A DNA stretch of 31,452 nt from a virus (taxonomy: Duplodnaviria; Heunggongvirae; Uroviricota; Caudoviricetes): IMG/VR virus record IMGVR_UViG_2713896902_000003, positions 1 to 31,452 of that record; one strand, 5' to 3'. Both the position numbers and the translations under genes were made by a program. The notes beneath the pieces are model-generated. The model saw only the letters and a list, made by a program, of their open reading frames with translations, had not been told where the DNA came from and made no database searches. Below are positions 1-15,644 of this stretch, one piece after another. Positions within the stretch are counted from its first letter, which is position 1; each line of letters begins with the position of its first letter.

Positions 1-1131
1 TCAAACGACCAGTTTTTTCCACTCCTTACCGCGTGCGTCGTTGTAAATATCGGTCATTTTTTGATTTGAATGGCCCAGCAAAATTTTGGTATCAATTCCC
101 TGTTCTCTGAACAATCGCTCTGATAAAGATCTCTGCTCATGGAAAGAGGGTGGGGTACCATTGGCACACCAGTTGTAATCTACAGAATCCCGGGCCTTTT
201 TAAATGCAACAGTTAATGTTGCTGGTTTAACCATTCCGCCGCGCTTAGCTGTCCCTTTCGCGTGATGGTGGTGCAATAACCACGGACTAAGAATGCAATC
301 GCGACAGGATGACACCACATCATCCAGGGTAAGATTTAATTTATCGCAACGCAGAGCCAGAGGGATGGCAATCCGGGCTCCCGTTTTTTGCTGTTCAACA
401 TGAAGATAGCTATCCCGGATATCCGAAAACTGCATTTTGCAAATATCCGAAAGACGTTGCCCTGTCATCAGCGCAAGCAACATGCCACGCTGTAAAAAGT
501 AACCATCTTTTTCCGCTGCGTTATAAATCATCATCCACTCATCAAAGGTCAGTCGTTGCCTTGATACCCGTACCTGCGGTTTTTTTGCCGACTCTGCCGG
601 GTTAAAGCCTGACGGGACATCGCCCGTTTGCTGAGCTTCCCTGAAAACATCGATCAATACCTTCCTGAAAATTTGTCCCATTCTGTTATGCCCTCTTGCC
701 TTGTATTCTTCCAGCACCGATACAATATCTTTTACGGTTATGGCATCTAATTGCCTGGCTCCAAAACGTTCATCAAATACCCTGAGAGGGGCCGCTTTCT
801 GTTTCAGCGTGTTGAGTTTGATCTCTCCGTTTTCATATCTTTCCTGTTGAATTTTTCTGTAACTATTCAGAAAAATGGAAACGGTTGATGAACCGCCGGT
901 ATCACTAATAATTTTTTCCTGCAGACTGAACATTTGTTCCATTTGTTGTCTGGCAAGACGGCTGTTCGCTTCTGCTGCAATGGTTTCCGCCAGTTTCTGG
1001 TCAATACTACCGAGTCCGTGATTTTTGCCTGTGATGGGATGCCTGTACCGCCAGTAAATTTTGTTATTTCTTTTGTCAAAATACGGAGATAATCCCGGAA
1101 CATCAGTTTTATATTTTCGAGGGCGAGCCAT
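1..1131 (-). CDS. int: Tyrosine-type site-specific integrase (phage integrase), 376 aa
   Basis: Complete reverse-strand ORF from the track; C-terminal region has the His/Arg/Tyr-containing pattern typical of tyrosine recombinases (HHHAKGTAKRGG, LLGHSNQKMTDIYNDARG); located at the prophage end directly downstream of an excisionase-like gene. Confidence 0.9.
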   Translation of the reverse strand: MARPRKYKTDVPGLSPYFDKRNNKIYWRYRHPITGKNHGLGSIDQKLAETIAAEANSRLARQQMEQMFSLQEKIISDTGGSSTVSIFLNSYRKIQQERYENGEIKLNTLKQKAAPLRVFDERFGARQLDAITVKDIVSVLEEYKARGHNRMGQIFRKVLIDVFREAQQTGDVPSGFNPAESAKKPQVRVSRQRLTFDEWMMIYNAAEKDGYFLQRGMLLALMTGQRLSDICKMQFSDIRDSYLHVEQQKTGARIAIPLALRCDKLNLTLDDVVSSCRDCILSPWLLHHHHAKGTAKRGGMVKPATLTVAFKKARDSVDYNWCANGTPPSFHEQRSLSERLFREQGIDTKILLGHSNQKMTDIYNDARGKEWKKLVV

Positions 1132-1357
1132 CTTCCAGTATCCTCTTTAAAGCCGGGTGATCTGTGGCGATCACTTCAGGCTTGCCTACCATTCCGACAA
1201 AGCGAGCCCGTGGATCCACTCGCCAGTGTCTTCCAACTTTTTTGGGGAGAGGAAATATCATTCCGGCTTTAGCATATTTACTTAATGTACCTGGAGTAGG
1301 GACCGGTTCACTGAATTCCTCTTTTGCCCACTCAGTGAGCAGAATAAGTCTTGCCAT
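1109..1357 (-). CDS. xis: Excisionase (Xis-like), 82 aa
   Basis: Small basic ORF overlapping the integrase start by 23 nt; N-terminal LTEWA motif and IFPLP...GRHWR segment resemble lambda Xis-type winged-helix excisionases (resemblance by memory). Confidence 0.7.
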   Translation of the reverse strand: MARLILLTEWAKEEFSEPVPTPGTLSKYAKAGMIFPLPKKVGRHWRVDPRARFVGMVGKPEVIATDHPALKRILEDGSPSKI

Positions 1358-1421: not shown

Positions 1422-3755
1422 TTAAAAATCAGCCGGATTCGGGATCAGTTTTTGCCAGATTGCTGAAACTTGTTTTGCTTGGTGACGGGCGTCATCCAGT
1501 GCATTGTGGGGCACACCTTCGAATGGAATAGCCATTCTGACATCAAAGCCAATGGAATTTCCCAGTTCAACAATTGTGCGTACATCGCGATCGTTGCAGT
1601 AACGCCACGGGCAGGGGAGTCCCTGTCGTTCATATGAACGGCGTAAAATCACGTTGTCGAAATTGGCTCCATTTCCCCAGACCTGAACAAAAAATTCGCA
1701 GGAGTTTTCCGCAATAAATTCCCGCAATTGCAGCAGAGCATCATCTAACGGGATTTCATCGGTCAGAATGGCAGATTGCGCTTCGCGTGATTGTTTCAGC
1801 CACCACTTTATTGTTTGTCTGTCGATGATTCCGCCAGCAGTTTCCAGATCGATAGCTTTACTGAATTCAGGCCCCATATCTCCGGTCTGCGGATCGAAAA
1901 ATATTGCGCCTATTGAGATAATCGTGGCGTCGGGATTTTTTCCCATTGTTTCCAGGTCGATCATCAGGTGGCGCTGCATTTTGCTGGTGGATGTATTAAT
2001 TTGATGGTCGTTCACCTTAATTATGGAATTTGCCGTTTCGCCAGTTTTATGAGCGCTATCGTGGTGCTGAGCGCTGCCAGCGTTCTCCTTGTGCAGATGT
2101 TCAGCGCCTTCCATTTCCTCCGGATCTTTTTCCTGAGATTCATCCAGATTTTCTTCATCGAATGTTTCCTGGTATGTTGCGTTGCCCATCACTGGGCCAC
2201 AATCAGGGCAGTTGCCGCCGCCAGTCTGACCGCAGGCGGTGCAGGTTTTTTCTGATTCCTGTCGTGTCTCTGACTCGTTTTGTCGCGCATTTTGACTGTT
2301 TTGTTCAGCTTTTTGCTGGCTCTGGTAAACTGAATCGCAAGTCTGGATCCCATCAACCCATTTCGGATCATTCGGGTCGCTAATCCCTTCAACAAATTCT
2401 CCGCGACAGGCAGCCAGCACTTTGTCTGCATCGACAGAATTTTTGGGCGGAATGTTTTTCCGTGCTTCATGGAGTTCTGCCCGTAGTTCCTGATATTTCG
2501 CATCAACAGAATTTACCTGTGGCTGAGCATCCATCGACTGCGTGTCCTGATGATGTTCAGTTGTATCCGGTTCCGCTGTTTCAGGCGTTGCCTGTTTATC
2601 TTCCAGGATATCTTTTTCCGGTGTATGTCGTGCAGCAGCAAGAGTTTCCTTGCTGGGGTTCTCGTGATCAGTCTCCGTTAAGTGGGCGTTGATATACTCC
2701 TGAAGGCGTCCCGGGTAGAGATAAAGTTCAGGGTGAGCACTTCGGATAAGTGCAAAATTCGCGGCGCGGGAATAATCCAGAATACCCGGGGTTGCGCGAA
2801 GTGCTGCGGACCATTCTTTGAACGGACTTTCTTTCTTCCGGACGACTTCTTTTGCGCGACGATAAACGCTGCCCGGGATTTCATAAATATTAAAATCAAT
2901 CGGAAGTGTGGCCGCTGCAATCTCCACATCCAGTGTATCGAGGGTGTGTACTAAATTCGGATTGCGATCGGTTTTGTTCCCACCGCCAGCATTAGCACCG
3001 GAAGCCGTGCGGGTGATGCGTGAAACACGATTTCCTTTCATCCACTCTTTTGTCAGCAGACCACGATCGGTGTAGTCGGCGCCCAGGTATGCTTCGAAAA
3101 AAGCAGTTATCAGTCCCAGATCTGAATTACCAGGATTAGGGAAAACTTTGTCAGTGTCACGAACCAGTTTGTGGAGATCGCGAATCTCCAGCGGTTTGAG
3201 TTGCGCTGCTTTATTTGAGATGGCCAGCGCTGTAACTGCGGGGAGTTTTTCATCCTGTGTGTTATGTAATGCGCGCAGTTCTTCCCGTGAAACGTGCGTT
3301 ATCGGTTTTTCGCTGCTGTGCTGTGCCAGCCAGCGAACAGGCAGAATCTGACCTGAAATCGGGAGTAGCATATTCTCCTCAATCTCAGTCATATCTTCGC
3401 CGTTGACGTTGGTATTGTCAGTGCTGGCTGGTTTATCCTGAACAGAGGGGGAAGGGGCGATAAATACCATTGTGATGCCATCTTCCCCGCCTTTTTCATA
3501 GCGGTTGCAGAATTCAGTATCAAACACGCCTTCTGGCGGAAGGTCGTCAACAACGGGCAAATTGACGCGGACGGGTTTTTTAAAGTCGTCCTCATCATAA
3601 TTGTTATCATCCATTGCGGTAATACAGCGGGAGACAGCAACAGATAATTTTTTTGCTGTAGTCCAGAAAAAACCGCCTTTGATGCCGAGACGTTTTCTGA
3701 CTTTGTCATTTTTTGCTTCGCAATATAGTGCAAATTCTTCTTTATCAGTGCTCAT
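1422..3755 (-). CDS. Putative exonuclease, 777 aa; C-terminal DnaQ-like (DEDD) 3'-5' exonuclease domain, N-terminal two-thirds uncharacterized
   Basis: Long ORF; C-terminal ~190 aa carry exonuclease motifs (MIDLETMG Exo I-like D-x-E, later HNALDDA with His/Asp); a four-Cys cluster [16 protein letters not shown] lies upstream of the nuclease domain. Sits where lambda exo or Rac recE lies; related prophage proteins are often annotated exodeoxyribonuclease VIII. Confidence 0.6.
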
Positions 3756-3832
3756 TGATAAACCTCATAACCATTTTCAGGGTGAACAAATCCCTGCCAT
3801 TGCTGGCATATAAAAATAAAACCGGATATTAA

Positions 3833-4036
3833 TTACGGCGCTGTTTTAAGTCCTGCCGGGACTTCGTTATTATCCATGCGAATAACTTTATCGACCGGAT
3901 AGCAGTTGCCGGGAATTTTTTGCTCTGCTGCGGCAGCCATGCATTCTTTCATTGAGCCGTAAATGTCAATAACCAGGTCAACAGGTTCGCCGGTATTAAG
4001 AAAAACTGTCAGAACGAGTGCAAATGCTGCATTCAT
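3833..4036 (-). CDS. Small hypothetical protein, 67 aa, hydrophobic N-terminus (possibly DUF1482-like)
   Basis: ORF from track; start overlaps the stop of the upstream gene by 4 nt (translational coupling); hydrophobic N-terminal stretch AFALVLTVFL. Family name is a guess. Confidence 0.5.
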   Translation of the reverse strand: MNAAFALVLTVFLNTGEPVDLVIDIYGSMKECMAAAAEQKIPGNCYPVDKVIRMDNNEVPAGLKTAP

Positions 4037-4221
4037 TGCCAGTATCCTTTTTGCATCAGACGTAAACGGGCCATCATTGAGGCAATGCGTATCTCATTTA
4101 ATGATTCAGGCCTGTGCTTTATCTGGTTAATGGCATCCTCAATAAAAGTTTTATCACCAGTGATAACGCCAATTTCAAAACGAGTTTCAGGCGTAGTGGA
4201 ATTGAGTAATAACATTTCCAT
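4033..4221 (-). CDS. Kil-like host cell-division inhibitor candidate, 62 aa
   Basis: Small ORF in the leftward early operon at the position of kil/kilR; segment FEIGVITGDKTFIEDAINQIK resembles the lambda Kil motif as I recall it. Low confidence, memory-based. Confidence 0.35.
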   Translation of the reverse strand: MEMLLLNSTTPETRFEIGVITGDKTFIEDAINQIKHRPESLNEIRIASMMARLRLMQKGYWQ

Positions 4222-4237
4222 TATCGCGTCCTCAACA

Positions 4238-4380
4238 GTGAATTTTGTGATGTGGTGCCTTCAGGTGACGTTAACCAGTTAACAATTAACGCCGGATACA
4301 GAGAATCCACCCGTAACACTGTTTTTAGCTTTAACTGTTCCGCGTGTGCTGAGCCGCATTCACCGCATCACAAAATTCAC
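4238..4380. repeat. 20-bp inverted repeat pair (GTGAATTTTGTGATGTGGTG at 4238-4257; CACCGCATCACAAAATTCAC at 4361-4380) flanking a 103-bp spacer
   Basis: Read directly: the arms are reverse complements with one mismatch; located immediately upstream (in the transcription direction) of the kil-like start codon. Confidence 0.7.
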
Positions 4381-4788
4381 TTTAAAAAGGGCGGACATCA
4401 GCCGGACTTCAAGAAAAAACTGATGCCGCCAAAGGCTCCGTCGTTAACACCCGACATGGATATGTTGTGGCGGGGTTGTCACTTAAGCGTATGGTCAGCC
4501 TGACAACCCGGTGTCCTCAACGGGGAAGGAGTAGCCCCGCCATACTTACCGCCGCGCCATTTCGCGGATTACCACAACCGGAAGCGCACGGTCGACGAAA
4601 ATTTAACGACAGACCATTTATGAACTAACAGCCTCGTCGTGCGCTTTCGCGTTATGCCCTGACTTTTCAGGGAAAATTAACCAGTGGTAAACTGGTGCTG
4701 CCGGATGCTCACCCGTGTCCGGCGCATGCCCTCCACCTCCCCCGTGGAGAAATCCTTAATTACCAACCTTAGCTTCGTTGGTTAGCTA

Positions 4789-5007
4789 TTAACGCGGGTA
4801 TGTAATCATTCTGGCGATACTTAATGCCACTGCTTTTTCCAGATTGGTAATATCTTTTTCCAGAGCAGACAGATTTTCGGCCTGCTTAGCCCTGGCTTCA
4901 TTGGCCCATTTTAGGTCTTGCGCTGCCTTAATTTTCTGGCACATCCACTCATAAAGTTCATCATCGGTATAGTCTGGCGCGATGATGACGGGTTCTGGTT
5001 TTTGCAT
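4789..5007 (-). CDS. Hypothetical protein, 72 aa; first gene of the leftward early (PL-like) operon
   Basis: ORF from track, about 190 nt downstream of the OL-like operators; no arginine-rich N-like motif, so not called an N antiterminator. Confidence 0.5.
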   Translation of the reverse strand: MQKPEPVIIAPDYTDDELYEWMCQKIKAAQDLKWANEARAKQAENLSALEKDITNLEKAVALSIARMITYPR

Positions 5008-5194
5008 ACTGATTCCTCGCAGTGCTGTTTCCCCTTAACGCCGGGGTGGCGGAACAAAAACCTGCTGCATAGTTAAAGTTGAACCCCGCCGTCATGTTCA
5101 TATGCCTCGGGCTGGCTACTTAACCCCTGACCACTGCTTGGTAACTCGAAGTATTGCCCGGCGTTCTGTGGGGCGGGGTGGGTTGGTATGAAAT

Positions 5195-5245
5195 AAAGAA
5201 TACCCACGGGTATCTAAAAAGTAAATACCCATGGGTAACTTTTTG
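5195..5245 (-). promoter_or_regulatory. OL-like operator pair (TACCCACGGGTA 5201-5212; TACCCATGGGTA 5226-5237) overlapping a candidate leftward PL promoter
   Basis: Two 12-bp palindromes of form TACCC-N2-GGGTA, 25 bp centre to centre, just downstream of the repressor gene 3' end; on the reverse strand TTACCC and TAGATA hexamers with a 16-nt spacer overlap them. Confidence 0.55.
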
Positions 5246-5278
5246 GGTGTCTTAACTGGTGACTGGTTGTTTGGTGAG

Positions 5279-5698
5279 TTATGATGCGTTTTGTGTTTTC
5301 TTTTTACGGATTTCTTCGTAGATCATATTGTAATACTGTTTTTTCTCTTCAAGAGTTTTTAGTAAGTTATCCGCTTCACTTTCTGGCAGTTCGTCTAAGA
5401 GATCTAAAAAAATACGTTGTCGTGGCGTTAGAACCCTTGTTTCATAATTGGAGGCTGCGTTCGTTGATGATGAAACGATACCATCCATCCATCCTCGGGG
5501 TAACCCAAAGGACTCTTCGATAATCTCCACCATATCATCAGCGATCCGTTTTTTTCCTTTTTTCCCCTCTGGATACAACATTCTTGATACATAAGAAGGC
5601 TCGCGACCGATCTTTCTGGCCACGTTAACCGCTTTACCATCGCATTTCTCATCACGAATTTTGATGAGTTGCTGTCGTCTAAATTCATATTTGTCCAT
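5279..5698 (-). CDS. Prophage repressor, DicA/RacR-like (HTH, no LexA-type peptidase domain), 139 aa
   Basis: Divergent from a Cro-like gene with operator palindromes on both sides; N-terminal HTH-like segment (AVNVARKIGREPSYVSRML); C-terminal LTPRQRIFLDLLDELPESEADNLL resembles the DicA C-terminus as recalled; too short for an S24 autopeptidase domain. Confidence 0.65.
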   Translation of the reverse strand: MDKYEFRRQQLIKIRDEKCDGKAVNVARKIGREPSYVSRMLYPEGKKGKKRIADDMVEIIEESFGLPRGWMDGIVSSSTNAASNYETRVLTPRQRIFLDLLDELPESEADNLLKTLEEKKQYYNMIYEEIRKKKTQNAS

Positions 5699-5733
5699 AG
5701 GTAAATAATAGATGCGATTACCGCAAGGTAAAC

Positions 5734-5774
5734 AACCCGTGGGTATTGACTTTTGTTTACCTATGGGTATTCTT
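5734..5774. promoter_or_regulatory. OR-like operator pair (AACCCGTGGGTAT 5734-5746; TACCTATGGGTA 5758-5769) with candidate rightward PR promoter (TTGACT 5746-5751, TATTCT 5768-5773)
   Basis: Same TACCC/GGGTA half-sites as the OL pair, in the 101-bp gap between repressor and cro-like genes; -35 and -10 hexamers with 16-nt spacing overlap the operators about 27 nt upstream of the cro-like ATG. Confidence 0.55.
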
Positions 5775-5799
5775 TTGCCGTGTTTACTAAGGAGTAGCT

Positions 5800-6081
5800 A
5801 TGGAAGAATTAAGAATGTTTCTCAATTCTCTTTCGTCAGATGAACAGCGTATGTTTGCATGTGAGTGTAGTACTAGCATCGGTTATCTAAGAAAGGCATT
5901 GAGTAAAGGTCAAGTGTTAGGGGCATCGTTATGTGTCCTTATTGAGCGAGCCAGTAATGGTGAAGTTACACGTCAGCAACTAAGGCCTTTTGATTGGATG
6001 AATATTTGGCCCGAGCTGGAAGACACCAAAACGTTAACACAACCACTTTCTAGGAGCTTGATTCATGAAAATCAAGCATGA
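5800..6081 (+). CDS. Cro/YdaS-like HTH transcriptional regulator, 93 aa
   Basis: Small ORF divergent from the repressor; RBS GGAG upstream; HTH-like segment FACECSTSIGYLRKALSKGQ; followed by a YdaT-like gene as in Rac-type prophages. Confidence 0.6.
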   Translation: MEELRMFLNSLSSDEQRMFACECSTSIGYLRKALSKGQVLGASLCVLIERASNGEVTRQQLRPFDWMNIWPELEDTKTLTQPLSRSLIHENQA

Positions 6082-6490
6082 GCACATCCGCATGGCGATG
6101 AATGCCTGGGCGCGTCCTGATGGCGAAAAAGTTCCGGCAGCTGGAATAACCCGGGCTTATTTTGAGTTGGGTATGACGTTTCCTGAACTGTATGACGACA
6201 GCCATCCGGAAGCCCTGGCTCGCAATACCCAGAAAATTTTCCGCTGGGTAGAGAAAGACACCCCTGATGCTGTTGAAAAAATTCAGGCGCTGTTACCAGC
6301 GATCGAAAAGGCAATGCCACCTCTGCTGGTGGCCCGAATGCGCAGCCACAGTTCAGCCTGGTTTCGGGAGCTGGTAGAGACGCGGGAACGACTGGTGAGA
6401 GACGCTGATGATTTTGTCGCAGTGGCGATCGCAGGTTTCAACCAGATGAATCGTGGTGGCCCGGCAGGAAATGCCGTGGCGGTACATTGA
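6065..6490 (+). CDS. YdaT-like protein, 141 aa
   Basis: Overlaps the upstream cro-like gene; N-terminus MKIKHEHI matches my recollection of E. coli Rac YdaT; the YdaS-YdaT pairing is consistent. Confidence 0.55.
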   Translation: MKIKHEHIRMAMNAWARPDGEKVPAAGITRAYFELGMTFPELYDDSHPEALARNTQKIFRWVEKDTPDAVEKIQALLPAIEKAMPPLLVARMRSHSSAWFRELVETRERLVRDADDFVAVAIAGFNQMNRGGPAGNAVAVH

Positions 6491-6561
6491 CTGACAATAT
6501 TCATACCGGATCGCTTCCGGCAACTCGTGAGTAAAAAGATTCGGTATCAGAAGAGGTGAGT

Positions 6562-7653
6562 ATGGCTAACGCCTGGCTCAGATTATGGCATGACATGCCA
6601 AATGACCCTAAGTGGCGAACAATTTCAAGGGTGTCAGGACAGCCAATCGCAACGGTGATGGCGGTGTATATCCACCTTCTGGTTAGCGCGTCACGAAATG
6701 TCACGACATGTCACGGTGTGTCACTACGTGGTCACATTGATGTCACGACGGAAGATTTAGCAAGTGCACTTGATGTAACGGAAGAGGTAATTGATTCAAT
6801 TTTGCAGGCAATGCAGGGGCGGGTGCTTGATGGAGATTTAATCACTGGATGGGAAAAACGCCAAGTACTGAAAGAGGACAACGGCAATATTTCGCAAACC
6901 GCAAAATCTCCGGCAGAGCGCAAGAGGGCGCAGAGAGAGAGGGAAAGAAAGCGGGAACAAAATGGCGATTGTCACGGAGCGTCACGAAATGTCACGCACA
7001 TGTCACGACGAGTCACGACAGATAAAGATACAGATAAAGATACAGATCAAGAAGATCAAAACACTATGGTCCATGGCGTAAAAAACGCCACGAACCAGGC
7101 AGGGGATGTTCAGACCGTCAATCCTGGTCAGCCAGCAGGCACGACACCGGAAGCCGATTCAGCGTATGCGCTGAAAGCCGATTCGGGCGCTGTGCAGCAT
7201 GCGATGACCGCAAGGCCGGAACAATCACACCAACTGCAGCAACCTGAAGCCGATTCCGCCATTCAGCGGGAAGCCGATCGGGTAGTCCCGGAAAACACCG
7301 GGCAGCCTGTGGGACGAGTGGATTATCCGGATGTGTTCGAACAGGTCTGGCTGGAATACCCGTTGCGTGCCGGGGCAAACCCGAAGAAATCCGCTTTCAG
7401 TGCCTGGAAGGCCAGATTACGCGAGGGGGTGCCACCAGAGGTCATGCTGGATGGAGTGAGGCGTTACGCAAGATACCTGGCGGCTACCGGGAAAACAGGA
7501 ACGGAGTTTGTTCAGCGAGCGACGACGTTTTTCGGCCCTGACCGGAATTTTGAAAACCCCTGGTTGCTCCCGGTAAGCGGCACGAACAACCAGCGTTGTG
7601 TGAATCATATTTCTGAACCGGACACTGAAATCCCGCCGGGATTCAGGGGGTGA
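6562..7653 (+). CDS. Replication initiation protein candidate (YdaU/DUF1376-like N-terminus), about 363 aa, with origin-like iterons inside the gene
   Basis: Track ORF 6556..7653; ATG at 6562 preferred (RBS AGAGGTGAG upstream). N-terminal WLRLWHDMPNDPKW motif is typical of DUF1376 replication-associated phage proteins as recalled; lies where lambda O lies; contains iteron clusters. Confidence 0.6.
   Translation: MANAWLRLWHDMPNDPKWRTISRVSGQPIATVMAVYIHLLVSASRNVTTCHGVSLRGHIDVTTEDLASALDVTEEVIDSILQAMQGRVLDGDLITGWEKRQVLKEDNGNISQTAKSPAERKRAQRERERKREQNGDCHGASRNVTHMSRRVTTDKDTDKDTDQEDQNTMVHGVKNATNQAGDVQTVNPGQPAGTTPEADSAYALKADSGAVQHAMTARPEQSHQLQQPEADSAIQREADRVVPENTGQPVGRVDYPDVFEQVWLEYPLRAGANPKKSAFSAWKARLREGVPPEVMLDGVRRYARYLAATGKTGTEFVQRATTFFGPDRNFENPWLLPVSGTNNQRCVNHISEPDTEIPPGFRG
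6690..6750 (+). repeat. Iteron cluster 1: six GTCAC(G/T)-containing direct repeats at 10-11 bp spacing
   Basis: Read directly: gtcacgaaatgtcacgacatgtcacggtgtgtcactacgtggtcacattgatgtcacgacg, inside the replication gene. Confidence 0.7.
6971..7044 (+). repeat. Iteron cluster 2 (five GTCACG repeats at 10-bp spacing, 6971-7017) followed by AT-rich tandem repeat gataaagataca x2 (7021-7044)
   Basis: Read directly: gtcacggagcgtcacgaaatgtcacgcacatgtcacgacgagtcacgaca then gataaagatacagataaagataca; the arrangement resembles lambda ori (iterons plus AT-rich region inside gene O). Confidence 0.65.
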
Positions 7654-7674
7654 GAATTGCTTCTGTGGAGTCTG

Positions 7675-7788
7675 ATGGAGGATTTATGGCGAGAATTTTT
7701 ATGTCAGAGGTTCGCAGAGGAACTGAAGAATCGTATTGTTGAGCTTGTGCGTAAAAATGAGTGTATACCAATTTTTCAATTGGTATGA
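7675..7788 (+). CDS. Possible small ORF, 37 aa (MEDLWREFLCQRFAEELKNRIVELVRKNECIPIFQLV)
   Basis: Below the track's 60-aa cutoff; ATG 7675 is 4 nt after GGAG and 22 nt after the replication-gene stop; translation reads like an amphipathic helix. Speculative. Confidence 0.2.
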   Translation: MEDLWREFLCQRFAEELKNRIVELVRKNECIPIFQLV

Positions 7789-7914
7789 CGCAACATGCAG
7801 CAGGCGTATAAAGTTATGCAAAGAGAGAACAGACGGTGCAGTTAATTATCAGGAGTTGTGTAATTGTAGCAAAAAGTAAAAGATATTGTGGATTCTGGAA
7901 ATGAGGGAGGGGCG

Positions 7915-8115
7915 ATGTGCGAAATTGTGGTGTTAATTAAAATAGCGTTAACGATTGGTTGTATTGCTGCTGTTGTCTTTGGATTGATTGCATGTGTCAC
8001 TAGAAAAAATCCTTTATGTTTCATTAATTCATTGTCTGTAATGAAGTTTTTGGTGGCACTAATAGCCTACATATGGTTTCTTTGTTTTCTTTTACCACCA
8101 TGGGAGTGTTCATGA
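7915..8115 (+). CDS. Small membrane protein, 66 aa, two predicted transmembrane helices
   Basis: Track ORF 7888..8115; ATG at 7915 preferred because of the strong RBS GAGGGAGGGG 3 nt upstream; two hydrophobic stretches (IVVLIKIALTIGCIAAVVFGLIA and FLVALIAYIWFLCFLL); in an AT-rich moron. Confidence 0.5.
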   Translation: MCEIVVLIKIALTIGCIAAVVFGLIACVTRKNPLCFINSLSVMKFLVALIAYIWFLCFLLPPWECS

Positions 8116-8198
8116 TAAGGGGCATTAGTTATCAGATATTGCATAAGGGACTGTTGCTGAAGAGCTTGTGAGCTTTCCTTAATATTGCCGGTATTTTG

Positions 8199-8204
8199 TA
8201 TAAT
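8199..8204 (+). promoter_or_regulatory. Candidate -10 element (TATAAT preceded by TG) for the 164-aa moron gene
   Basis: tttgTATAATaatg read directly, about 38 nt upstream of ATG 8242; no convincing -35 identified. Confidence 0.35.
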
Positions 8205-8241
8205 AATGAAATGGGTCTGTGGGGTGGAAGGATGAAAGTTA

Positions 8242-8736
8242 ATGAGCGCTTTTACCAAAGAGCAACTAATCGAGTACGCAAGGGCTTACATTGAGCATGA
8301 TACATTGTTGAAAACGAGGTTTGGTAAAAGTTACAAGACGTCTGCATATATAGAATTGGTTCGTATTGCGTTGATTTCGCTTGAAACAGGGACGCCTTAT
8401 ATGAATCAATTTACCAGAAAAACATTTACGCTGGATGCGCAACCAGATGCTGATAGAGAGTCTGATGCACATGAACCTTCTTATGCATTTCAATTGCCAT
8501 CAGTAGCTCCGGAGATGGCTGAAGATGCTATTAAATGTATTCGCAGCATCGCTCCCCACCTTAATGAAGGTACTCCCTCTTCGACATCTGACAGGCAGGT
8601 CCACGAGCTAGCTATATGGGTTAAGCGTCTAGCCTATTCCTTAAAAGGTGTCAATAAATCAAGCAAGTTACCAGATAAGGCGATGGACTATCTGGAGGTT
8701 AACGGGATGATAAATAAGGAGAATATCTTGCGGTGA
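8242..8736 (+). CDS. Hypothetical protein, 164 aa (moron cargo, function unknown)
   Basis: Clean ORF in a visibly AT-rich segment between the replication and DUF968 genes; own promoter-like -10; no recognizable motif. Confidence 0.6.
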   Translation: MSAFTKEQLIEYARAYIEHDTLLKTRFGKSYKTSAYIELVRIALISLETGTPYMNQFTRKTFTLDAQPDADRESDAHEPSYAFQLPSVAPEMAEDAIKCIRSIAPHLNEGTPSSTSDRQVHELAIWVKRLAYSLKGVNKSSKLPDKAMDYLEVNGMINKENILR

Positions 8737-9315
8737 GTAAAATTTATGCAATTGAGTAATCGTGTTTTTCTGAGTACTCATGTCGGGGTTTACTGTCAAG
8801 AATAAAAACAATTTGCAGGCAAAAGAAACTTGAGTAAAATTGATACAGGATGCCTGAGGTTGTCAGCCCGGGCATAAACGTCAAGAGGCAGACAGAGAAA
8901 AACTTCGTTGTATTTGCGACCAGTCAATCGAAGTTTGCTCATGCCAGACATATTTACTCTGAGCTCCTTCCATACTGAACGGCAGGGAAAGTGCAGATTA
9001 TGAAGTGTAAACAGTGTTAATACTCTGAGTGTCATTTGTATCGCGGTCACTGTGACAGAATCAGGGAAATCTCTGTCAAGCACGAACCAGAATCGGTCCG
9101 TCGGGAATTGCTTCATGGTTTGCGAATCTGAGTGAGGAGTAAGAAAAGTCGGTGGGGGTATGCTTCTCCACCTCTTTTTTTCTGGTGCATCTGGCATCCT
9201 CTGGGCATCCACACTTAATTTTCTTAAGTAGATTTTGTATTTTCTACGCATTTTGGTTTACAATTTGCGCGCCAACCTGAACAATTGGTACCTGCTGCGT
9301 CAATAGAGAAAATAA

Positions 9316-9594
9316 ATGACGCACAATACTAAACCTCGCAATTCTGATAATATCGCCGTCTTTGCCAACAGGCACGGGCGGCATTCACATGCATTCAAAT
9401 CTGACTGGTTCCAGCATGACCCATGCACTGAGGAACAGGCCGAATGGCTGATTCAGAATTACCGCAGACGTGGGTACGAGTTTCAGAAAGACCTCAGTCT
9501 TGATTTCCGACACTGGATAATTTCCGTCAGGCTTCCTTATTCCGAACGCCCACCGCGTCCGTCCCGCACATTCCAGCAACGGATCTGGAGGTAA
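9316..9594 (+). CDS. Hypothetical protein, 92 aa
   Basis: ORF from track; stop TAA is 1 nt before the GTG start of the downstream DUF968-like gene, which has its RBS GGAGG inside this ORF (translational coupling). Confidence 0.5.
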   Translation: MTHNTKPRNSDNIAVFANRHGRHSHAFKSDWFQHDPCTEEQAEWLIQNYRRRGYEFQKDLSLDFRHWIISVRLPYSERPPRPSRTFQQRIWR

Positions 9595-9595
9595 C

Positions 9596-10654
9596 GTGCG
9601 GGTATTACTTAGACCTGTTCTGGTACCGGAACTTGGGCTGGTGGTCCTTAAGCCAGGCCGTGAATCCATGCAGGTATTTCATAATGCCCGGGTGCTGGTG
9701 GAGCCGGAACCGAAAAGCATGCGCGGCCTGCCGTCCGGAGTCGTCCCCGCTGTTCGTCAGCCGCTGGTGGAAGATAAATCATTATTGCCATTTTTCAGCG
9801 ATGAGCGGGTTATTCGTGCTGCTGGTGGCGCTGGCGCATTGTCTGACTGGCTCCTGCGTCATGTTAAATCCTGCCAGTGGCCTCATGGTGATTACCATCA
9901 CAGCGAAACCGTCATACATCGTTATGGTACCGGCGCCATGGTGTTGTGCTGGCACTGCGACAACCAGCTGCGTGACCAGACCTCCGAATCACTTGAGCAA
10001 CTTGCTCGTCAAAATCTGGCAGCCTGGATGATTGACGTCATCCGCCACGCAATAAGCGGTACACAGGAACGGGAATTATCGCTGGCTGAATTATCCTGGT
10101 GGGCAGTCCGCAATCAGGTGGCGGACGCACTACCTGAGGCGGTATCGCGTCGTTCGCTGGGATTACCGGTGGAAAAAATCCGTTCAGTATACCGCGAAAG
10201 CGACATCATACCGGGAGAGCAGACAGCCACCAGCATACTGAAGCTGCGCACAAAAAATCTTGCGCGGTTGCCTCACGCCCACCAGCAACAAAAACCACCA
10301 CAGGAAAAGACGGTAGTAAGCATCGCCGTTGATCCGGAGTCTCCGGCTCAGTATCTCCAGCGCCAGAAACCACAACGGGAAGAGATGCCCGTATACACGC
10401 GCTGGGTAAAAACACAGAAATGCATGACGTGTGGCAATCAGGCAGATGATCCGCATCACATCATTGGTCATGGACTGGGAGGGATGGGAACAAAGGCTGA
10501 CGATTTGTTTGTTATTCCGCTGTGCCGTAGATGCCATAACGAACTGCACGCCGGGGTAAAAGATTTTGAAGAAAAACACGGCAGCCAGCTGTTGTTGCTG
10601 ATTCGTTTTTTAATGCACGCGAGAAATTCGGGTGTTCTGAAGTGGAAAGCATGA
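9596..10654 (+). CDS. DUF968-like prophage protein with C-terminal HNH-like zinc-binding nuclease motif, 352 aa
   Basis: Size and position (between replication and rusA/Q) match the DUF968/YdfU-type proteins of lambdoid prophages; C-terminus has CMTCGNQADDPHHIIGHGLGG...CRRCHNELH, i.e. paired Cys motifs with conserved His typical of the HNH fold. Confidence 0.65.
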   Translation: MRVLLRPVLVPELGLVVLKPGRESMQVFHNARVLVEPEPKSMRGLPSGVVPAVRQPLVEDKSLLPFFSDERVIRAAGGAGALSDWLLRHVKSCQWPHGDYHHSETVIHRYGTGAMVLCWHCDNQLRDQTSESLEQLARQNLAAWMIDVIRHAISGTQERELSLAELSWWAVRNQVADALPEAVSRRSLGLPVEKIRSVYRESDIIPGEQTATSILKLRTKNLARLPHAHQQQKPPQEKTVVSIAVDPESPAQYLQRQKPQREEMPVYTRWVKTQKCMTCGNQADDPHHIIGHGLGGMGTKADDLFVIPLCRRCHNELHAGVKDFEEKHGSQLLLLIRFLMHARNSGVLKWKA

Positions 10655-11032
10655 ATGACTGAACGCATAGAATTTGTTTTGCCTTATCCGCCTACGGTGA
10701 ACACCTACTGGCGCCGCCGTGGTGGCACATATTTTGTATCAAAATCCGGAGAACGTTATCGCCGTGATGTGGCGCTGATTGTTCGTCAGCAACGGCTGAA
10801 ATTAAACCTGTCCGGAAGGCTGGCAATCAGGATTATTGCAGAGCCACCGGATAAGCGCCGCCGCGACCTGGACAATATCCTGAAGGCACCACTGGATGCA
10901 CTGACACATGCAGGACTGCTTATCGACGATGAGCAGTTTGACGAAATCAATATAGTGCGCGGTCAGCTCGTTCCTGGTGGTCGGCTGGGTGTGAAGATTT
11001 ACGAAATTACAGGTGATAACGATGGCGCGTGA
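10655..11032 (+). CDS. rusA: Crossover junction endodeoxyribonuclease RusA (Holliday junction resolvase), 125 aa
   Basis: Matches RusA by recall: N-terminal [16 protein letters not shown] and the catalytic-region motif [27 protein letters not shown]; usual position just upstream of Q. Confidence 0.9.
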
Positions 11033-11408
11033 TATTCAGCAGGTTATGGAGCGGTGGGGGGCATGGGCTGCAAACAATCATGAAGATGTGTCCTGGGCAT
11101 CAATCGCTGCTGGTTTTAAAGGATTAATTCCGTCGAAAGTGAAATCACGCCCTCAGTGTTCTGATGATGATGCAATGATAATTTGTGGCTGTATGGCCCG
11201 GTTGAACAAGAAAAATCAGGATTTGCACGATTTGTTGGTGGATTATTACATAGGTGGAATGACTTTTATGGGGCTGGCACGAAAGCATGGGTGTTCGGAT
11301 ACCTGTATTGGCAAGCGCCTGCAGAAAGCTGAAGGGGTTATTGATGGCATGTTGATGATGCTTGATATCCGACTGGAGATGGACAGATACGTAGAACGAA
11401 TCATGTAG
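11022..11408 (+). CDS. Late-gene antitermination protein Q-like, about 128 aa
   Basis: Track ORF 11013..11408; ATG at 11022 preferred. Located immediately upstream of a promoter plus intrinsic terminator (PR'/tR' arrangement) and downstream of rusA; Cys/His-containing middle region ([12 protein letters not shown]...HGCSDTC). Confidence 0.7.
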
Positions 11409-11412
11409 GAGC

Positions 11413-11442
11413 TTGACCAGACACATTGTCCGGGGCTATATT
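11413..11442 (+). promoter_or_regulatory. Candidate late promoter PR' (TTGACC 11413-11418; TATATT 11437-11442)
   Basis: Near-consensus -35 and -10 hexamers with an 18-nt spacer, 5 nt after the Q stop codon and about 60 nt upstream of an intrinsic terminator. Confidence 0.5.
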
Positions 11443-11504
11443 CCTCACGCGCCAGCAAAATCTGGCGTCGGGATTAGGAACCCCGGATAGAGACCGCGAC
11501 AGAC

Positions 11505-11526
11505 ACACGCCGCGAGCGTGTTTTTT
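11505..11526 (+). terminator. Intrinsic terminator tR' candidate (ACACGC-CGCGA-GCGTGT plus T6)
   Basis: 6-bp GC-rich stem, 5-nt loop, followed by TTTTTTATT; read directly. Confidence 0.6.
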
Positions 11527-11689
11527 ATTGTCGTATGCACGCGCACATCTGAATTATGGTGGGGCGTATGGGGGAGCTGAAAAGCTCGCCGGTTGGTTTC
11601 CCGGTAGTTCCTAACCCTGTACGTCTCACCACCCGATGATTAGGAACCTGACGGTGGTGATGGTTTAGAAACCACCAGAGGGCGTCATT

Positions 11690-12277
11690 ATGACAACTCA
11701 AATTTCTGTTGAAACTCTCTCCCCGATCACCCATAACCAGATTCCTGTTATTACCACCGAACTTTTGGCGCAGTTGTACGGTGCTGAAGTTAAGAACATT
11801 CAAAATAACTACGCCAGAAATGCTGAGCGCTTTATTGAAGGAAAGCATTTTTTCAAAGTGGCTGGCGATGCCCTGAAAAATTTGCGGGTAGCTTTAAACT
11901 ACTCACAAAATTTGCAACCATCTTTAAGAGGGTTACAAATTTCCCCGAAAGCCCGCTCGCTCATACTCTGGACAGAACGCGGCGCAGCCCGCCACGCAAA
12001 AATGCTCGAAACCGATCAGGCGTGGGAAGTATTCGAAAAACTGGAAGACTGTTATTTCAGCCAGAAACAGCCACTAGCAACACAAAACTCACCCACCGAA
12101 AATGATGGATGCGCATTACTGATCCACTTCGATAAACACGGTCAGGTCGACTTTACGGAAAAAGTACCCGCCGATGCGATGGTATGCACTCTGGAACGGT
12201 TCAAATTTTATCTGGAACAACGCGGCTGGATCGTTGCCCGTAAAGAGCAACTGGTGGAACGATTGATGAGGCTTTAA
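11690..12277 (+). CDS. ORF6N-like (phage antirepressor N-terminal DNA-binding domain) protein, 195 aa
   Basis: First ORF downstream of PR'/tR'; RBS AGAGGG; N-terminal region (IPVITTELLAQLYGAEVKNIQNNYARNAERFIEGKHFF...ILWTERGAARHAKML) resembles ORF6N/Bro-N type domains as recalled. Confidence 0.5.
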   Translation: MTTQISVETLSPITHNQIPVITTELLAQLYGAEVKNIQNNYARNAERFIEGKHFFKVAGDALKNLRVALNYSQNLQPSLRGLQISPKARSLILWTERGAARHAKMLETDQAWEVFEKLEDCYFSQKQPLATQNSPTENDGCALLIHFDKHGQVDFTEKVPADAMVCTLERFKFYLEQRGWIVARKEQLVERLMRL

Positions 12278-12355
12278 AAATTTTCCCCGAACGCTTTACG
12301 ATCGTAAAAAGTTGAATATCCTGTTAAGAGTGGTTACTACGCCACACAGCTTAAA

Positions 12356-12377
12356 CCCGCCGATGAGCGGGTTTTTT
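12356..12377 (+). terminator. Intrinsic terminator after the ORF6N-like gene (CCCGC-CGATGA-GCGGG plus T6)
   Basis: Read directly, about 80 nt after the stop codon. Confidence 0.6.
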
Positions 12378-12683
12378 ATGCCCGAAAAGTGGCACAGGAC
12401 GTTAAACGCGCTGGTGGTTGCGAATACTGGTCTTCAGCTTGCTGGCTTTTTTGGCCAGGAGTTATTGGTGTTACATGTCTGACAGTTGTCTGTAACTGGT
12501 TCCGGGATTTTTACACCTGTACAGCGGAAGGGACATGAACCTTTGTTGCTGGCAGGGTTAAGCTAACCAAATCTGAAAGTGGTGTGACTGTCATTGCCGG
12601 AGAGAGATTCATGAGTCTACGCTAATCAATGCGGAGTAATTTTTCTTCGTAACGAGTATCCGACTGTTGTTTTGTCTTTATTG

Positions 12684-12708
12684 CCAGCCCATAAGGGTTG
12701 GTTTTTTT
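12684..12708 (+). terminator. Intrinsic terminator candidate (CCAGCCC-ATAA-GGGTTGG plus T7)
   Basis: 7-bp stem with one G-U pair, then TTTTTTT; read directly. Confidence 0.45.
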
Positions 12709-13084
12709 ACAGAAAATTGCCTGTAAGACAGGTGGTTCAGTAATAGCTTGGATATTGGGATATATAAAAATTGTTATATGTATCCGGGATGTTGTGCGTG
12801 CATGTGGAATACAACCGTTACTGCCTTGTTATTATTTTGAAAACTGGTCGCTGTGTATTCTTGTTCTTTCCGGATAATGTGATGTAGATCTATTACATTA
12901 CCAGGCAGCGTATTTTAACCTTTCAGAGATTCTGAGGTGTTCCCCAGTGCGGGGGTGACGGATGTGGTTGTTTAGCGGGAAGTCACAGTATGCTGTTTTG
13001 GGACTGACAGCAATATACTTCGGGAGGCACCCGACGCTTCGGATCATATCAATAATAATTATATCTTCTTTTGACCATCCTTTT

Positions 13085-13108
13085 ACCGCCTGACAAGGCG
13101 GTTTTTTG
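13085..13108 (+). terminator. Intrinsic terminator candidate (ACCGCC-TGACAA-GGCGGT plus T6), nested in a longer inverted repeat CGCCTGACAA/TTGTCAGGCG (13087-13134)
   Basis: Read directly; the outer 10-bp repeat is also followed by TTTTT (13135-13139). Confidence 0.5.
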
Positions 13109-13226
13109 TTTCTGTAAACAGCATTTGTCAGGCGTTTTTCGATATATCAAAGTATCGCTATGTAGTTTAAATGCAGAGCTGAAGAGTATTGCTGGTGCTG
13201 GCATCAAGATGAGGAAAGTTTTAGTG

Positions 13227-13253
13227 AAAAAAAACGGCTCATAAAGAGCCGTT
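13227..13253 (-). terminator. Reverse-strand intrinsic terminator module 1a (stem AACGGCTC/GAGCCGTT, U-tract from plus-strand A8)
   Basis: Plus strand reads A8-hairpin-TTAAAAA; on the minus strand the hairpin is followed by T8. Confidence 0.5.
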
Positions 13254-13377
13254 AAAAATGTGATAGTTATGCATCTATAGAGTAATTCAGTATTTTCCTG
13301 TTTTTATTGTGCAATTCCTTGATGTGGATCATGTTTGTTGTAATGACCTCAAGAGTTGAACAAACTTTATTTAGTCT

Positions 13378-13404
13378 AAAAAAAATACCCTCCAGCGGAG
13401 GGTA
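13378..13404 (-). terminator. Reverse-strand intrinsic terminator module 2a (stem TACCCTCC/GGAGGGTA, loop AGC)
   Basis: 8-bp GC-rich stem with A8 immediately 5' on the plus strand, i.e. T8 3' of the hairpin on the minus strand. Confidence 0.55.
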
Positions 13405-13526
13405 TAAAATGTGTTAACTAAGCATTCATTATGTTGTAAGTGTCATATGTGATTTTCATTTTATGAGTTTTGACGTGACTTTTTGTGATGTGATTCTTAT
13501 TTTTGAATAATAAAGTTACGTAAAGA

Positions 13527-13557
13527 AATAAAAAAGCGACCCATTTGAAGAGTCGCT
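13527..13557 (-). terminator. Reverse-strand intrinsic terminator module 3a (stem AGCGAC/GTCGCT)
   Basis: Hairpin preceded on the plus strand by AATAAAAAA (U-tract on minus strand). Confidence 0.45.
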
Positions 13558-13671
13558 TGTGAATAAAGGCGGTATGTGAGTAGTAACGTACGGAGTGAAT
13601 TTTACTGCACCAGATGTGTGGTAGATATTGATTCTGGTCAATTCATCTGTAATGAGTGGTTGTTTAACGGC

Positions 13672-13698
13672 AAAAAAATAGCTCCCCGGAAGAGGAGC
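13672..13698 (-). terminator. Reverse-strand intrinsic terminator module 4a (stem GCTCC/GGAGC)
   Basis: Hairpin preceded on the plus strand by AAAAAAATA. Confidence 0.4.
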
Positions 13699-14189
13699 CC
13701 GTGAAAATTCATGGTGAGAAGAACAAGTCTTTACAAAAGACTCCGACAGACAAAGAACCATAAATATGATATGGGGGGGATAGTGGTTCTGTGGTGATTT
13801 ATATCAAAATTTTGATGTTTTCTTGAATGCTTGATGGCTAATTATAATAGTACATATTAAATGTTTATTATTATTTTCATATTGGAATAAGTAGCATCCT
13901 TGATATATCGCCCTGTAACTAGGCGAATGCCGGAAGCAGAACCGGCTCACCAAATACATACGGGCGTCATCACCACCAGCTAACAGCACAACCATAAATG
14001 AAAGTCATAGTTATTGGGGGATCCAGACCTTTCGGTTAACTGGTTTTTCTACAGAAAATTACCAGTCTGGCTGGTGGTTCCGGGAACCGCATCAATTATG
14101 GGGTTTGAATGTAGCGGAAAGTATATTATTGATGTTGCCGGGACTGACAGCAAGGTGAATGAAAAATGGACGTTGGAAAGCTTCTGTGC

Positions 14190-14217
14190 AAAAAAACGGC
14201 ACTGAGAAAGTGCCGTT
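14190..14217 (-). terminator. Reverse-strand intrinsic terminator module 1b (stem AACGGCACT/AGTGCCGTT)
   Basis: Counterpart of 1a with compensatory stem changes; A7 on the plus-strand 5' side. Confidence 0.5.
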
Positions 14218-14338
14218 AAAAAGTAACATGTATGATATATAAGGTCTTGTTAGTATTTTCTGTATTGCGATTCGTTTTCTTTGATTTCAGTCAACATTGA
14301 TGCGCAGTAATTAGTAATGGATTGAAATTTATGCAGAC

Positions 14339-14365
14339 AAAAAAAGTACCCTCCTGACGAGGGTA
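14339..14365 (-). terminator. Reverse-strand intrinsic terminator module 2b (stem GTACCCTC/GAGGGTAC, loop CTGAC)
   Basis: Counterpart of 2a; stem register shifted and loop changed but pairing kept. Confidence 0.55.
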
Positions 14366-14507
14366 CAGGTACGAAAACATGTGAAGAAGTATTTATTGCT
14401 AGTGTTATGTAGAGCTCTGAATCCTACGCGTTCTGATCTTACAAATTTCATATTTTTTTTATGTGATGCAGTTCCTGTTTTTATTTTTTTGTCGGTGATG
14501 GTCTGAT

Positions 14508-14534
14508 AAAAAGCGACCTTTTTACAGGTCGCTT
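14508..14534 (-). terminator. Reverse-strand intrinsic terminator module 3b (stem AAGCGACC/GGTCGCTT)
   Basis: Counterpart of 3a with compensatory change (gaccc...gagtc versus gacct...aggtc). Confidence 0.45.
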
Positions 14535-14964: not shown

Positions 14965-14982
14965 ATTTACAGGAGAAAAAGT

Positions 14983-15643: not shown

Positions 15644-15644
15644 T

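Follow-up and report, generated by a model that had tools for sequence, protein, structure and literature searches.

The closest described relatives of this locus are found among the lambdoid phages, whose recombination modules include DnaQ-like nucleases (Genome Res 2025; PMC12315714). That article sets apart a class B that has a nuclease only, no SAP, and many Chi sites, with phage Tritos as its prototype, and it gives Chi counts from 21/6 to 7/2 for Tritos-class phages. Growth aided by host RecBCD is demonstrated in it for phage LLS alone. A DnaQ-like nuclease that stands beside int as the only recombination gene, with no SAP, is already described there. The second point of comparison is RecE of the Rac prophage, which carries a C-terminal PD-(D/E)XK 5'-3' nuclease (about 564/606-866; PF12684-type) and is followed by recT, ralR, and rcbA. 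The N-terminal domain of RecE boosts linear-linear recombination (PMC11611040). A third is the dicB operon of Qin, which is under DicA repression (PMC10448788).

We analysed a stretch of 31,452 nucleotides (the window) in which one gene of a lambdoid Escherichia albertii prophage has a mosaic early protein as its product. The open reading frame is intact (777 aa, ATG start, GAGG 7 nt upstream), and its product is 100% identical to a deposited "exonuclease [Escherichia albertii]" (P0001). The gene closes an early-left (dicB-type) operon, ahead of xis and int, and has the following surroundings:

1..1131, minus strand: lambda-type tyrosine integrase
1109..1357, minus strand: excisionase, directly downstream of the exonuclease gene, with no recT between them
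1422..3755, minus strand: the whole gene, 777 aa, RecE N-terminal region plus DEDDh exonuclease
3833-4036, minus strand: DUF1482/YdfD-like gene of the same operon, upstream of the exonuclease gene
4033-4221, minus strand: DicB, same operon, forming with the DUF1482/YdfD-like gene the pair directly upstream of the exonuclease gene
4389..4437, minus strand: DicF-like sRNA in the ydfC-dicB spacer, with a score below the Rfam gathering value
5237..5201: strong terminator-like hairpin after the repressor-like regulator
5279..5698, minus strand: repressor-like regulator, first of the leftward genes

The gaps along the series xis, exonuclease, DUF1482-DicB, ydfC-like gene, and repressor are 65, 78, 568, and 272 bp. 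Immediately ahead of the exonuclease gene we saw no promoter of the sigma-70 type, which is weak evidence. The K-12 Qin pseudogene ydfE occupies the same position after dicB-ydfD, and we considered the gene as its intact form; BLASTP similarity between the two is nil, and this identification was rejected.

The preliminary description had taken the C-terminus for a DEDD 3'-5' exonuclease rather than a PD-(D/E)XK nuclease, and the HMM search that we ran on it agrees. The domain lies as follows:

1455..1970, minus strand: DEDDh 3'-5' exonuclease domain (PF16473), aa 596-767

The Pfam profile PF16473 (Rv2179c-like) matches this segment over positions 2-177/177 (E=2.1e-66; 223.4 bits for a cutoff of 27), and all five catalytic residues are in place: D600 and E602 (LMIDLETMG), D700 (NGANFD), and H750 and D755 (HNALDDA). 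Pfam gives no match to a RecE-type PD-(D/E)XK domain, and the BLASTP alignment with RecE ends at residue 591. Across about 300 fusion proteins, the three acidic positions are conserved (D in 302/303, E in 301/303, D in 295/303), and the catalytic H and D are kept in every non-truncated homologue of this kind. The domain is a DEDDh (DnaQ-like) domain that is catalytically intact as judged by its residues, and its homologues predict a 3'-5' polarity. The best solved structure in a profile search of the PDB is T4 DexA (8kel, E=5.9e-16). Only two DexA entries (8kel/8ken) pass E 0.01 in this search and no structure of an Rv2179c-like exoribonuclease does, so the relationship with Rv2179c of Mycobacterium tuberculosis, the namesake of PF16473 and a member of the same Pfam family, is more distant. 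Rv2179c is a stand-alone bacterial exoribonuclease; our literature search on Rv2179c in prophages found nothing.

The N-terminal region, about 550 aa that had been regarded as uncharacterized, is instead a homologue of the N-terminus of RecE at 59% identity, Cys4 cluster included. Its parts are these:

2019..3584, minus strand: RecE-homologous region, aa 58-579, 59% identity to Rac RecE aa 50-591 (BLASTP)
3456..3755, minus strand: D1, predicted alpha/beta domain, aa 1-100, pLDDT about 70-85
3021..3368, minus strand: D2, predicted helical domain, aa 130-245, basic (pI 9.1) and highly conserved with RecE
2946..3017, minus strand: Gly-rich loop, aa 247-270, of low confidence in the model
2670..2945, minus strand: D3, predicted helical domain, aa 271-362
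1971..2669, minus strand: acidic region, aa 363-595, of low model confidence, containing conserved islands and the Cys4 cluster
2199..2243, minus strand: Cys4 cluster C505/C508/C516/C519 (CxxC-x7-CxxC), a putative zinc ribbon

Two profiles agree with this assignment. PF06630 (Pfam) matches aa 57-189 (E=6e-26), and the NCBIfam model for ExoVIII (NF007259) matches aa 1-579 over model positions 1-602/877 with 860.5 bits, a score below its equivalog cutoff of 1269. The first approximately 57 residues are unlike Rac RecE and are common to E. coli O157-type proteins. The Gly-rich loop is the top conserved stretch of the RecE-N family. The four cysteines stand as first described; the cluster also occurs in Rac RecE and in 187/302 DEDDh-type relatives, and is therefore optional. 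For the structure, AF2 performed poorly on aa 1-590 (21 sequences; mean pLDDT 40) and gave a usable model for aa 1-400 (41 sequences; mean pLDDT 68, pTM 0.35). This medium-confidence model of the N-terminus has three folded domains, and the acidic region that follows them is probably largely disordered. Foldseek searches of the N-terminal model against PDB and BFVD returned no fold match below E 0.6. These predictions speak neither for nor against the anti-defence or DNA-binding activity first suggested for the N-terminus.

The two halves meet over a short segment, in which the following features are found:

1968..2018, minus strand: fusion bridge of 17 aa, aa 580-596
1983..1990, plus strand: Chi site GCTGGTGG inside the fusion bridge, on the strand opposite to the gene

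Similarity to RecE stops after ETGET-A, and similarity to the stand-alone DEDDh protein gp26 of phage mEp460 starts at LMIDLETMG. That protein (about 190 aa) is approximately 60% identical to aa 591-772 of the window protein and is likewise encoded last before xis; exonucleases of its type are devoid of a RecE-type N-terminus, unlike the window protein. Judged by sequence, the window gene looks like a gene of the mEp460 gp26 type joined in frame to the 5' part of recE through the 17-aa bridge. The Chi site lies 10 codons upstream of exonuclease motif I, at an identical position in 10/10 Escherichia DEDDh-type genes, and is absent from the RecE-type genes of Rac and P0116. The comparison of the proteins P0116 and P0087 delimits the exchange: they are near-identical over the first approximately 570 aa, after which P0116 continues with the RecE nuclease and P0087 with the DEDDh domain. 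A recT gene follows P0116, as it does Rac RecE and the RecE-like protein of Gifsy-1. The PD-(D/E)XK 5'-3' nuclease of RecE has been replaced by a DEDDh domain, and the unit of the swap includes recT.

The lack of an annealing partner between xis and kil (no Bet, RecT, or Erf-like protein), as first noted, holds for the whole window. Tblastn searches with Rac RecT, Gifsy-1 RecT, lambda Bet, Exo, and Gam, and the RecE C-terminus gave a best E=0.03 (E>1 for the RecE C-terminus), and Pfam and PHROGs scans identified no SSAP family in the other open reading frames. Of the anti-RecBCD proteins Gam, GamL, MuGam, and Abc2, lambda Gam alone served as a query, and by sequence only; it has no homologue in the 31-kb window, which is only part of the prophage, and the Pfam and PHROGs scans show no anti-RecBCD family. 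A standard RecE with a degraded recT nearby had been named as the alternative, and these searches find no trace of recT or of the RecE C-terminus. The same holds for related prophages, for which a check had been proposed: in 18 DEDDh-type loci (Escherichia, Citrobacter, Enterobacter, Leclercia, and phages Tritos and 640R1; the set includes duplicate contigs of one prophage) the order is exonuclease-xis-int without recT, with no xis called in one of them (L023).

The gene is not an unusual one: besides the identical E. albertii protein, the PF06630+PF16473 architecture is precomputed for hundreds of database clusters. At least 1222 of the 5426 complete E. coli genomes have it, and it also occurs in Citrobacter, Enterobacter, and Leclercia and in the isolated or induced phages Tritos and vB_EcoS-640R1. 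A scan of genome contigs yielded 7 loci, all from Escherichia, Shigella, or mislabelled MAGs. A faint YdfE_C match is present only in some Enterobacter relatives of the exonuclease.

The window is rich in Chi sites, 16 being observed for an expectation of 0.79 +/- 0.87, a number that 0/100 shuffles reach. They are placed as follows:

1983..20088, plus strand: twelve Chi sites, with four further ones on the minus strand

The majority fall in the interval from the replication genes to the terminase genes, the equivalent of the right arm on the phage map. Because 16 sites are observed where 0.79 are expected, the phage probably relies on host RecBCD.

We favour a reading, to which we give a little better than an even chance, in which the RecE-N/DEDDh mosaic is an accessory trimmer of 3' ends in a phage reliant on RecBCD and Chi. 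The protein would be made upon induction from the repressor-controlled early-left (dicB-type) operon and would remove nucleotides at DNA 3' ends. A two-component recombinase function of the RecET or Red type would be impossible for it, because this requires 5'-3' resection and an annealing protein. The phage, with no Gam homologue and many correctly oriented Chi sites, would probably use host RecBCD-Chi-RecA recombination to feed concatemer formation, the strategy proposed for Chi-rich lambdoid classes. The exonuclease would then act in an accessory capacity at 3' ends, and the RecE-type N-terminus may provide tethering or targeting that is independent of the nuclease. This "tether" role is speculative, since the model is of medium confidence and has no fold match. 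According to the 2025 article, 3'-5' ssDNA exonucleases generally antagonise recombination (PMC12315714), so a positive role in the RecBCD/Chi pathway is not obvious. We infer the polarity, the preference for DNA or RNA, and the in vivo role of the protein from homology.

A further extension of this reading is doubtful. The RecE N-terminal region might be a targeting scaffold indifferent to the nuclease, to which cassettes of PD-(D/E)XK plus recT, of DEDDh, or none are attached; the DEDDh version might be a dedicated partner of host RecBCD-Chi that trims 3' tails or flaps at Chi-processed ends; and the Chi site of the bridge might work as a hotspot and at the same time be a footprint left by cassette exchange under Chi stimulation.

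Among the other explanations, anti-phage defence by the prophage fares best and is still unlikely. Here, the DEDDh domain would degrade the nucleic acid of superinfecting phages, with the RecE-like N-terminus as an auxiliary or sensor. The closest solved relative is T4 DexA, and EcD ("HREX"), a homologue of DexA in E. coli with specificity for 5hmC DNA, protects against T4 (PMC12153337). ISG20-like "TONDO" DEDDh exonucleases, which have auxiliary domains of unknown function and are in some cases prophage-borne, act against RNA phages (PMC13344964). DicB, here encoded in the adjoining pair, is reported to protect against phage infection when expressed (PMC6832061). The place next to int is a usual site of moron or defence cargo. 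However, the PADLOC models gave no match. In a provisional alignment with DexA at about 29% identity, the proposed 5hmC-recognition residues W152 and D169 are lost (C720 and S734 in the window protein; Y, W, or C and A, S, or T, respectively, in homologues) and the tetramer-forming D90 is retained (D672), which is the reverse of the published defence signature. The place of the gene as distal cistron in an early-left operon under repressor control, together with the lack of a promoter-like site directly upstream, speaks against its constant expression in the lysogen. The gene also occupies the slot of recE, replacing the RecE nuclease domain and recT, and not that of an added cargo.

Homology to DexA would also fit nucleotide scavenging during lytic growth, in which host DNA or oligonucleotides would be degraded from their 3' ends for phage replication; we regard this as quite improbable. 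The accepted roles of DexA include host DNA scavenging (PMC12153337). The position in an early operon is compatible with such a role, but the operon shows no gene for an endonuclease partner and the conserved RecE-type N-terminus of 580 aa would be left unexplained. Moreover, no temperate lambdoid phage is known to degrade the host chromosome.

There is equally little probability that the protein is an RNA exonuclease trimming the 3' ends of phage or host transcripts or of sRNAs such as the co-transcribed DicF. PF16473 is named after an exoribonuclease, which counts against the DNA-exonuclease reading, and PGAP calls many homologues "3'-5' exoribonuclease". Against this, the PDB profile search yields only T4 DexA, a DNA exonuclease (E=5.9e-16), and the domain substitutes for a DNA nuclease in a DNA-recombination protein. 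Finally, a decayed RecET module, i.e., a non-functional relic of a standard RecE without its nuclease domain and recT, would agree with the RecE-like N-terminus and with the often defective state of Rac-type prophages but is extremely improbable, given that tblastn finds no remnant of recT or the RecE C-terminus in any frame of the window, the open reading frame is unbroken, conservation of the DEDDh catalytic residues extends over about 300 homologues from several genera, and the architecture is present in the isolated or induced phages Tritos and vB_EcoS-640R1.

The result has consequences for annotation. RecE-N/DEDDh proteins are not recombination nucleases of the RecE type, nor are they demonstrably RNases, which corrects the common labels "exodeoxyribonuclease VIII" (phage records) and "3'-5' exoribonuclease" (PGAP). 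The comparisons can be put as a rule: a RecE N-terminus with PD-(D/E)XK goes with recT, and one with DEDDh goes with no recT and a Chi-rich phage. This ties a prophage protein that over a fifth of the complete E. coli genomes carry to the recently proposed RecBCD/Chi-dependent lambdoid lifestyle. The protein is common in prophages of gut bacteria and is of a kind described in 2025 (PMC12315714).

The protein can be placed among known systems by what it shares with each. With Rac RecE it shares the early-left operon slot, the Gly-rich loop, the acidic linker, and the Cys4 cluster; it differs by a DEDDh domain in place of the PD-(D/E)XK nuclease and by the absence of recT, ralR, and rcbA downstream. 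With T4 DexA and EcD it shares the DEDDh fold family and all catalytic residues, but these are stand-alone proteins of approximately 190-230 aa, whereas the window domain shares one polypeptide with 590 aa of RecE-type sequence. The "exonuclease VIII" of phage Tritos (TRITO_27) is 57% identical over aa 270-776 of the window protein. The gene order is alike in both (DicF-dicB-ydfD-exonuclease-xis-int), and both combine a homologous early-left nuclease with no SAP, no anti-RecBCD function found (by the lambda Gam query in the window), and many Chi sites, 12 on the plus and 4 on the minus strand in the 31 kb of the window and 9 on the top and 2 on the bottom strand in Tritos. The two differ in the first approximately 270 residues, which are more diverged, and in their hosts, E. 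coli for Tritos and E. albertii for the prophage of the window.

The open reading frame at 1422..3755 (minus strand) is genuine: it encodes 777 aa from an ATG start with GAGG 7 nt upstream, and the net charge of its product is -42. Residues 596-767 form an Rv2179c-like DEDD exonuclease domain (Pfam, E=2.1e-66, 223 bits against a cutoff of 27). The DEDDh set is complete (D600 and E602, D700, H750 and D755), which bears out the reading of the DLETMG and HNALDDA motifs as those of a DEDD-type exonuclease, and these catalytic residues are retained by virtually every member of a set of about 300 fusion proteins. The nearest solved structure is T4 DexA (E=2.4e-6 with the single sequence, E=5.9e-16 with a profile); beyond its two entries, no chain passes E 0.01 in a PDB search with this domain. 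The PGAP names of homologues of the domain (1455-1970, minus strand) vary between 'exonuclease', '3'-5' exoribonuclease', and 'exodeoxyribonuclease VIII'. Because the nearest solved relative is a DNA exonuclease, the RNase and ExoVIII labels may both be misleading.

The preliminary description read a real feature correctly, with one correction: the N-terminal two-thirds, taken to be unassigned, are those of RecE. Pfam places PF06630 (Exonuc_VIII) at residues 57-189 (E=6e-26), and BLASTP aligns residues 58-579 with residues 50-591 of Rac RecE (the exodeoxyribonuclease VIII of the Rac prophage, taken from an annotated K-12-like genome) at 59% identity, with no similarity beyond RecE residue 591. 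The NCBIfam ExoVIII equivalog model aligns over its positions 1-602 of 877 with residues 1-579 and, as the protein lacks the final third of the model, scores below its cutoff. The Cys4 cluster, already noted, is present (C505/C508/C516/C519) and belongs to the region shared with Rac RecE, where its counterpart is CNACGQTGGDNCPDCG; the motif occurs in only 187/302 fusion proteins. An AlphaFold2 model of the N-terminus, built on a 41-sequence alignment (mean pLDDT 68), gives the following regions:

aa 1-100, alpha/beta domain
aa 101-128, disordered linker
aa 130-245, helical domain
aa 247-270 (window 2946-3017, minus strand), highly conserved Gly-rich loop, poorly modelled, as unstructured
aa 271-362, second helical domain

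Residues 363-595 are acidic and of low model confidence. Across the RecE N-terminal family as a whole, conservation is highest in the Gly-rich loop, where R249, T250, A256, G258, D263, and R264 are invariant in the 41 sequences; the loop may serve in binding or catalysis.

The fusion joint is the site of a cassette exchange. Two related database proteins, P0116 (897 aa) and P0087 (820 aa), are near-identical over their first ~570 aa and split after '...ETGE(V/T)AD' into a RecE nuclease and a DEDDh domain, respectively. The DNA-level similarity to recE stops at this joint and is followed by a 17-aa bridge; from 'LMIDLETMG' on, the similarity is to stand-alone phage DEDDh genes such as mEp460 gp26 (190 aa), likewise the last gene ahead of xis. 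The downstream genes differ with the nuclease: recT comes after P0116, the RecE of Rac, and the RecE-like protein of Gifsy-1, whereas in 18/18 inspected DEDDh-type loci (including duplicate contigs of one prophage, and one locus, L023, with no xis called) the exonuclease leads straight into xis-int; the integrases and attachment sites of these loci are of several kinds.

On the minus strand of the window, the gene order is as follows:

5279-5698, minus, repressor
4789-5007, minus, ydfC-like gene
4389-4437, minus, DicF-like sRNA (31.9 bits, under the Rfam gathering score of 48)
4033-4221, minus, dicB
3833-4036, minus, DUF1482/ydfD-like gene
1422-3755, minus, exonuclease
1109-1357, minus, xis
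1-1131, minus, int

The reported lack of an annealing protein between xis and kil holds. The non-coding gaps between the early-left genes leave no room for one, and tblastn of the whole 31 kb with Rac RecT, Gifsy-1 RecT, lambda Bet/Exo/Gam, the RecE C-terminus, RalR, or RcbA gave no match better than E=0.03. The other window ORFs, scanned with Pfam and PHROGs, are assigned to replication, RusA, Q, lysis, terminase, and tail functions, with no single-strand annealing protein (SSAP) among them. The spacer between ydfC and dicB shares 92% identity with that of K-12 Qin, apart from a diverged block at the dicF position; the sRNA could be a form of DicF whose targeting sequence differs. A terminator-like hairpin with a 16-bp stem (5201-5237, minus strand) lies right after the repressor, ahead of the ydfC-dicB-exonuclease genes, which may therefore require their own promoter or antitermination. 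Elsewhere, the Q antiterminator gene is closely followed by an isrK and C4 antisense RNA with an a1/b1 target element (11436-11636, plus strand), after which comes an ORF6N-domain gene (11690-12277); this region is a P1/P7-type antirepressor-control cassette inside a lambdoid prophage.

Chi (GCTGGTGG) occurs 16 times in the window against 0.79 +/- 0.87 expected (~20-fold), a count reached by 0/100 shuffles. The sites span 1983-20088, with 12 on the plus strand, that of the rightward late genes, and 4 on the minus strand, and most plus sites fall in the stretch that leads from the replication region to the terminase genes (19.06-21.5 kb), an orientation and right-arm location that are the active ones in a published survey (PMC12315714). 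Such an excess characterises the RecBCD-dependent, Chi-rich lambdoid class. One site (1983-1990, plus strand) falls within the bridge, at codons 589-591, 10 codons upstream of motif I. It is found at the same place in 10/10 Escherichia DEDDh-type genes, Tritos included, in a bridge that is otherwise variable; Chi is absent from the RecE-type genes of Rac and P0116. Shared ancestry, selection, or the footprint of a Chi-stimulated exchange are possible explanations. Six further sites lie inside a DUF968/HNH-like gene (9596-10654), four on the plus strand at 9637-9828 and two on the minus strand at 10227 and 10279; the Tritos DUF968 gene has a matching cluster (38518-38709, plus; 39108 and 39160, minus).

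A deposited 'exonuclease [Escherichia albertii]' matches the protein at 100% identity, and by this match the window is assigned to E. albertii. Megablast found a match over at least 80% of the gene in 1222/5426 complete E. coli genomes, where PGAP names the product 'exonuclease' or '3'-5' exonuclease', and precomputed architectures place PF06630+PF16473 also in Citrobacter, Enterobacter, Leclercia, Atlantibacter, and Phytobacter. Searched with residues 1-590, a set of 1.84 billion representative proteins yielded 258 clusters at 50% identity. Among the 79 whose representatives are at least 450 aa long, the C-termini are RecE-type in 23, DEDDh in 15, and fused to RecT in 2. The other 39, among P0121-P0270, have no recognisable C-terminal nuclease domain and may be the 'RecE-2' proteins without nuclease of PMC12315714. 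In P0124 (703 aa, RecT at 528-678) and one other of these representatives, a RecT domain directly succeeds the RecE N-terminal region, the nuclease domain having apparently been deleted in frame.

In Qin, DicA represses dicBp (PMC10448788); in the window, the exonuclease would be produced once the early-left operon is derepressed. Its activity would be that of a 3'-5' exonuclease whose substrate is probably DNA, and it would form no RecET-type recombinase, the phage presumably recombining through host RecBCD-Chi-RecA. 3' exonucleases usually lower recombination (PMC12315714). The rival readings of the domain are the scavenging of host DNA, as by DexA, and RNA as the substrate, named in one PGAP label and at odds with the kinship to a DNA exonuclease. 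A role in defence has precedents in the E. coli DexA homologue EcD (PMC12153337) and ISG20-like TONDOs (PMC13344964), and is countered by the absence of a PADLOC match, the operon position of the gene, and, in an alignment at 29% identity, the non-conservation of proposed 5hmC-recognition residues (DexA W152 to C720 and D169 to S734, with D90 retained as D672).

A module with a nuclease only has a published counterpart. In a survey of 325 lambdoid phages (Genome Res 2025), the annealing protein is absent from only 9/246 modules, and a class of 4 phages with Tritos as prototype has a nuclease, no annealing protein, no anti-RecBCD function, and Chi counts from 21/6 to 7/2 (PMC12315714). Phages without recombination machinery of their own are there rich in Chi, and LLS, a phage of this kind, shows better growth when RecBCD is present (PMC12315714). 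From its Chi excess, orientation, and location, our prophage fits this nuclease-only, Chi-rich class. The function of its exonuclease can be examined in cultivable phages. The protein is not novel: its precise sequence, its architecture, and the class of its module have each been recorded before. Tritos encodes a homologue of 823 aa (57% identity over residues 270-776), has 9 and 2 Chi sites where the window has 12 and 4, and shares its gene order, DicF-dicB-ydfD-exonuclease-xis-int.
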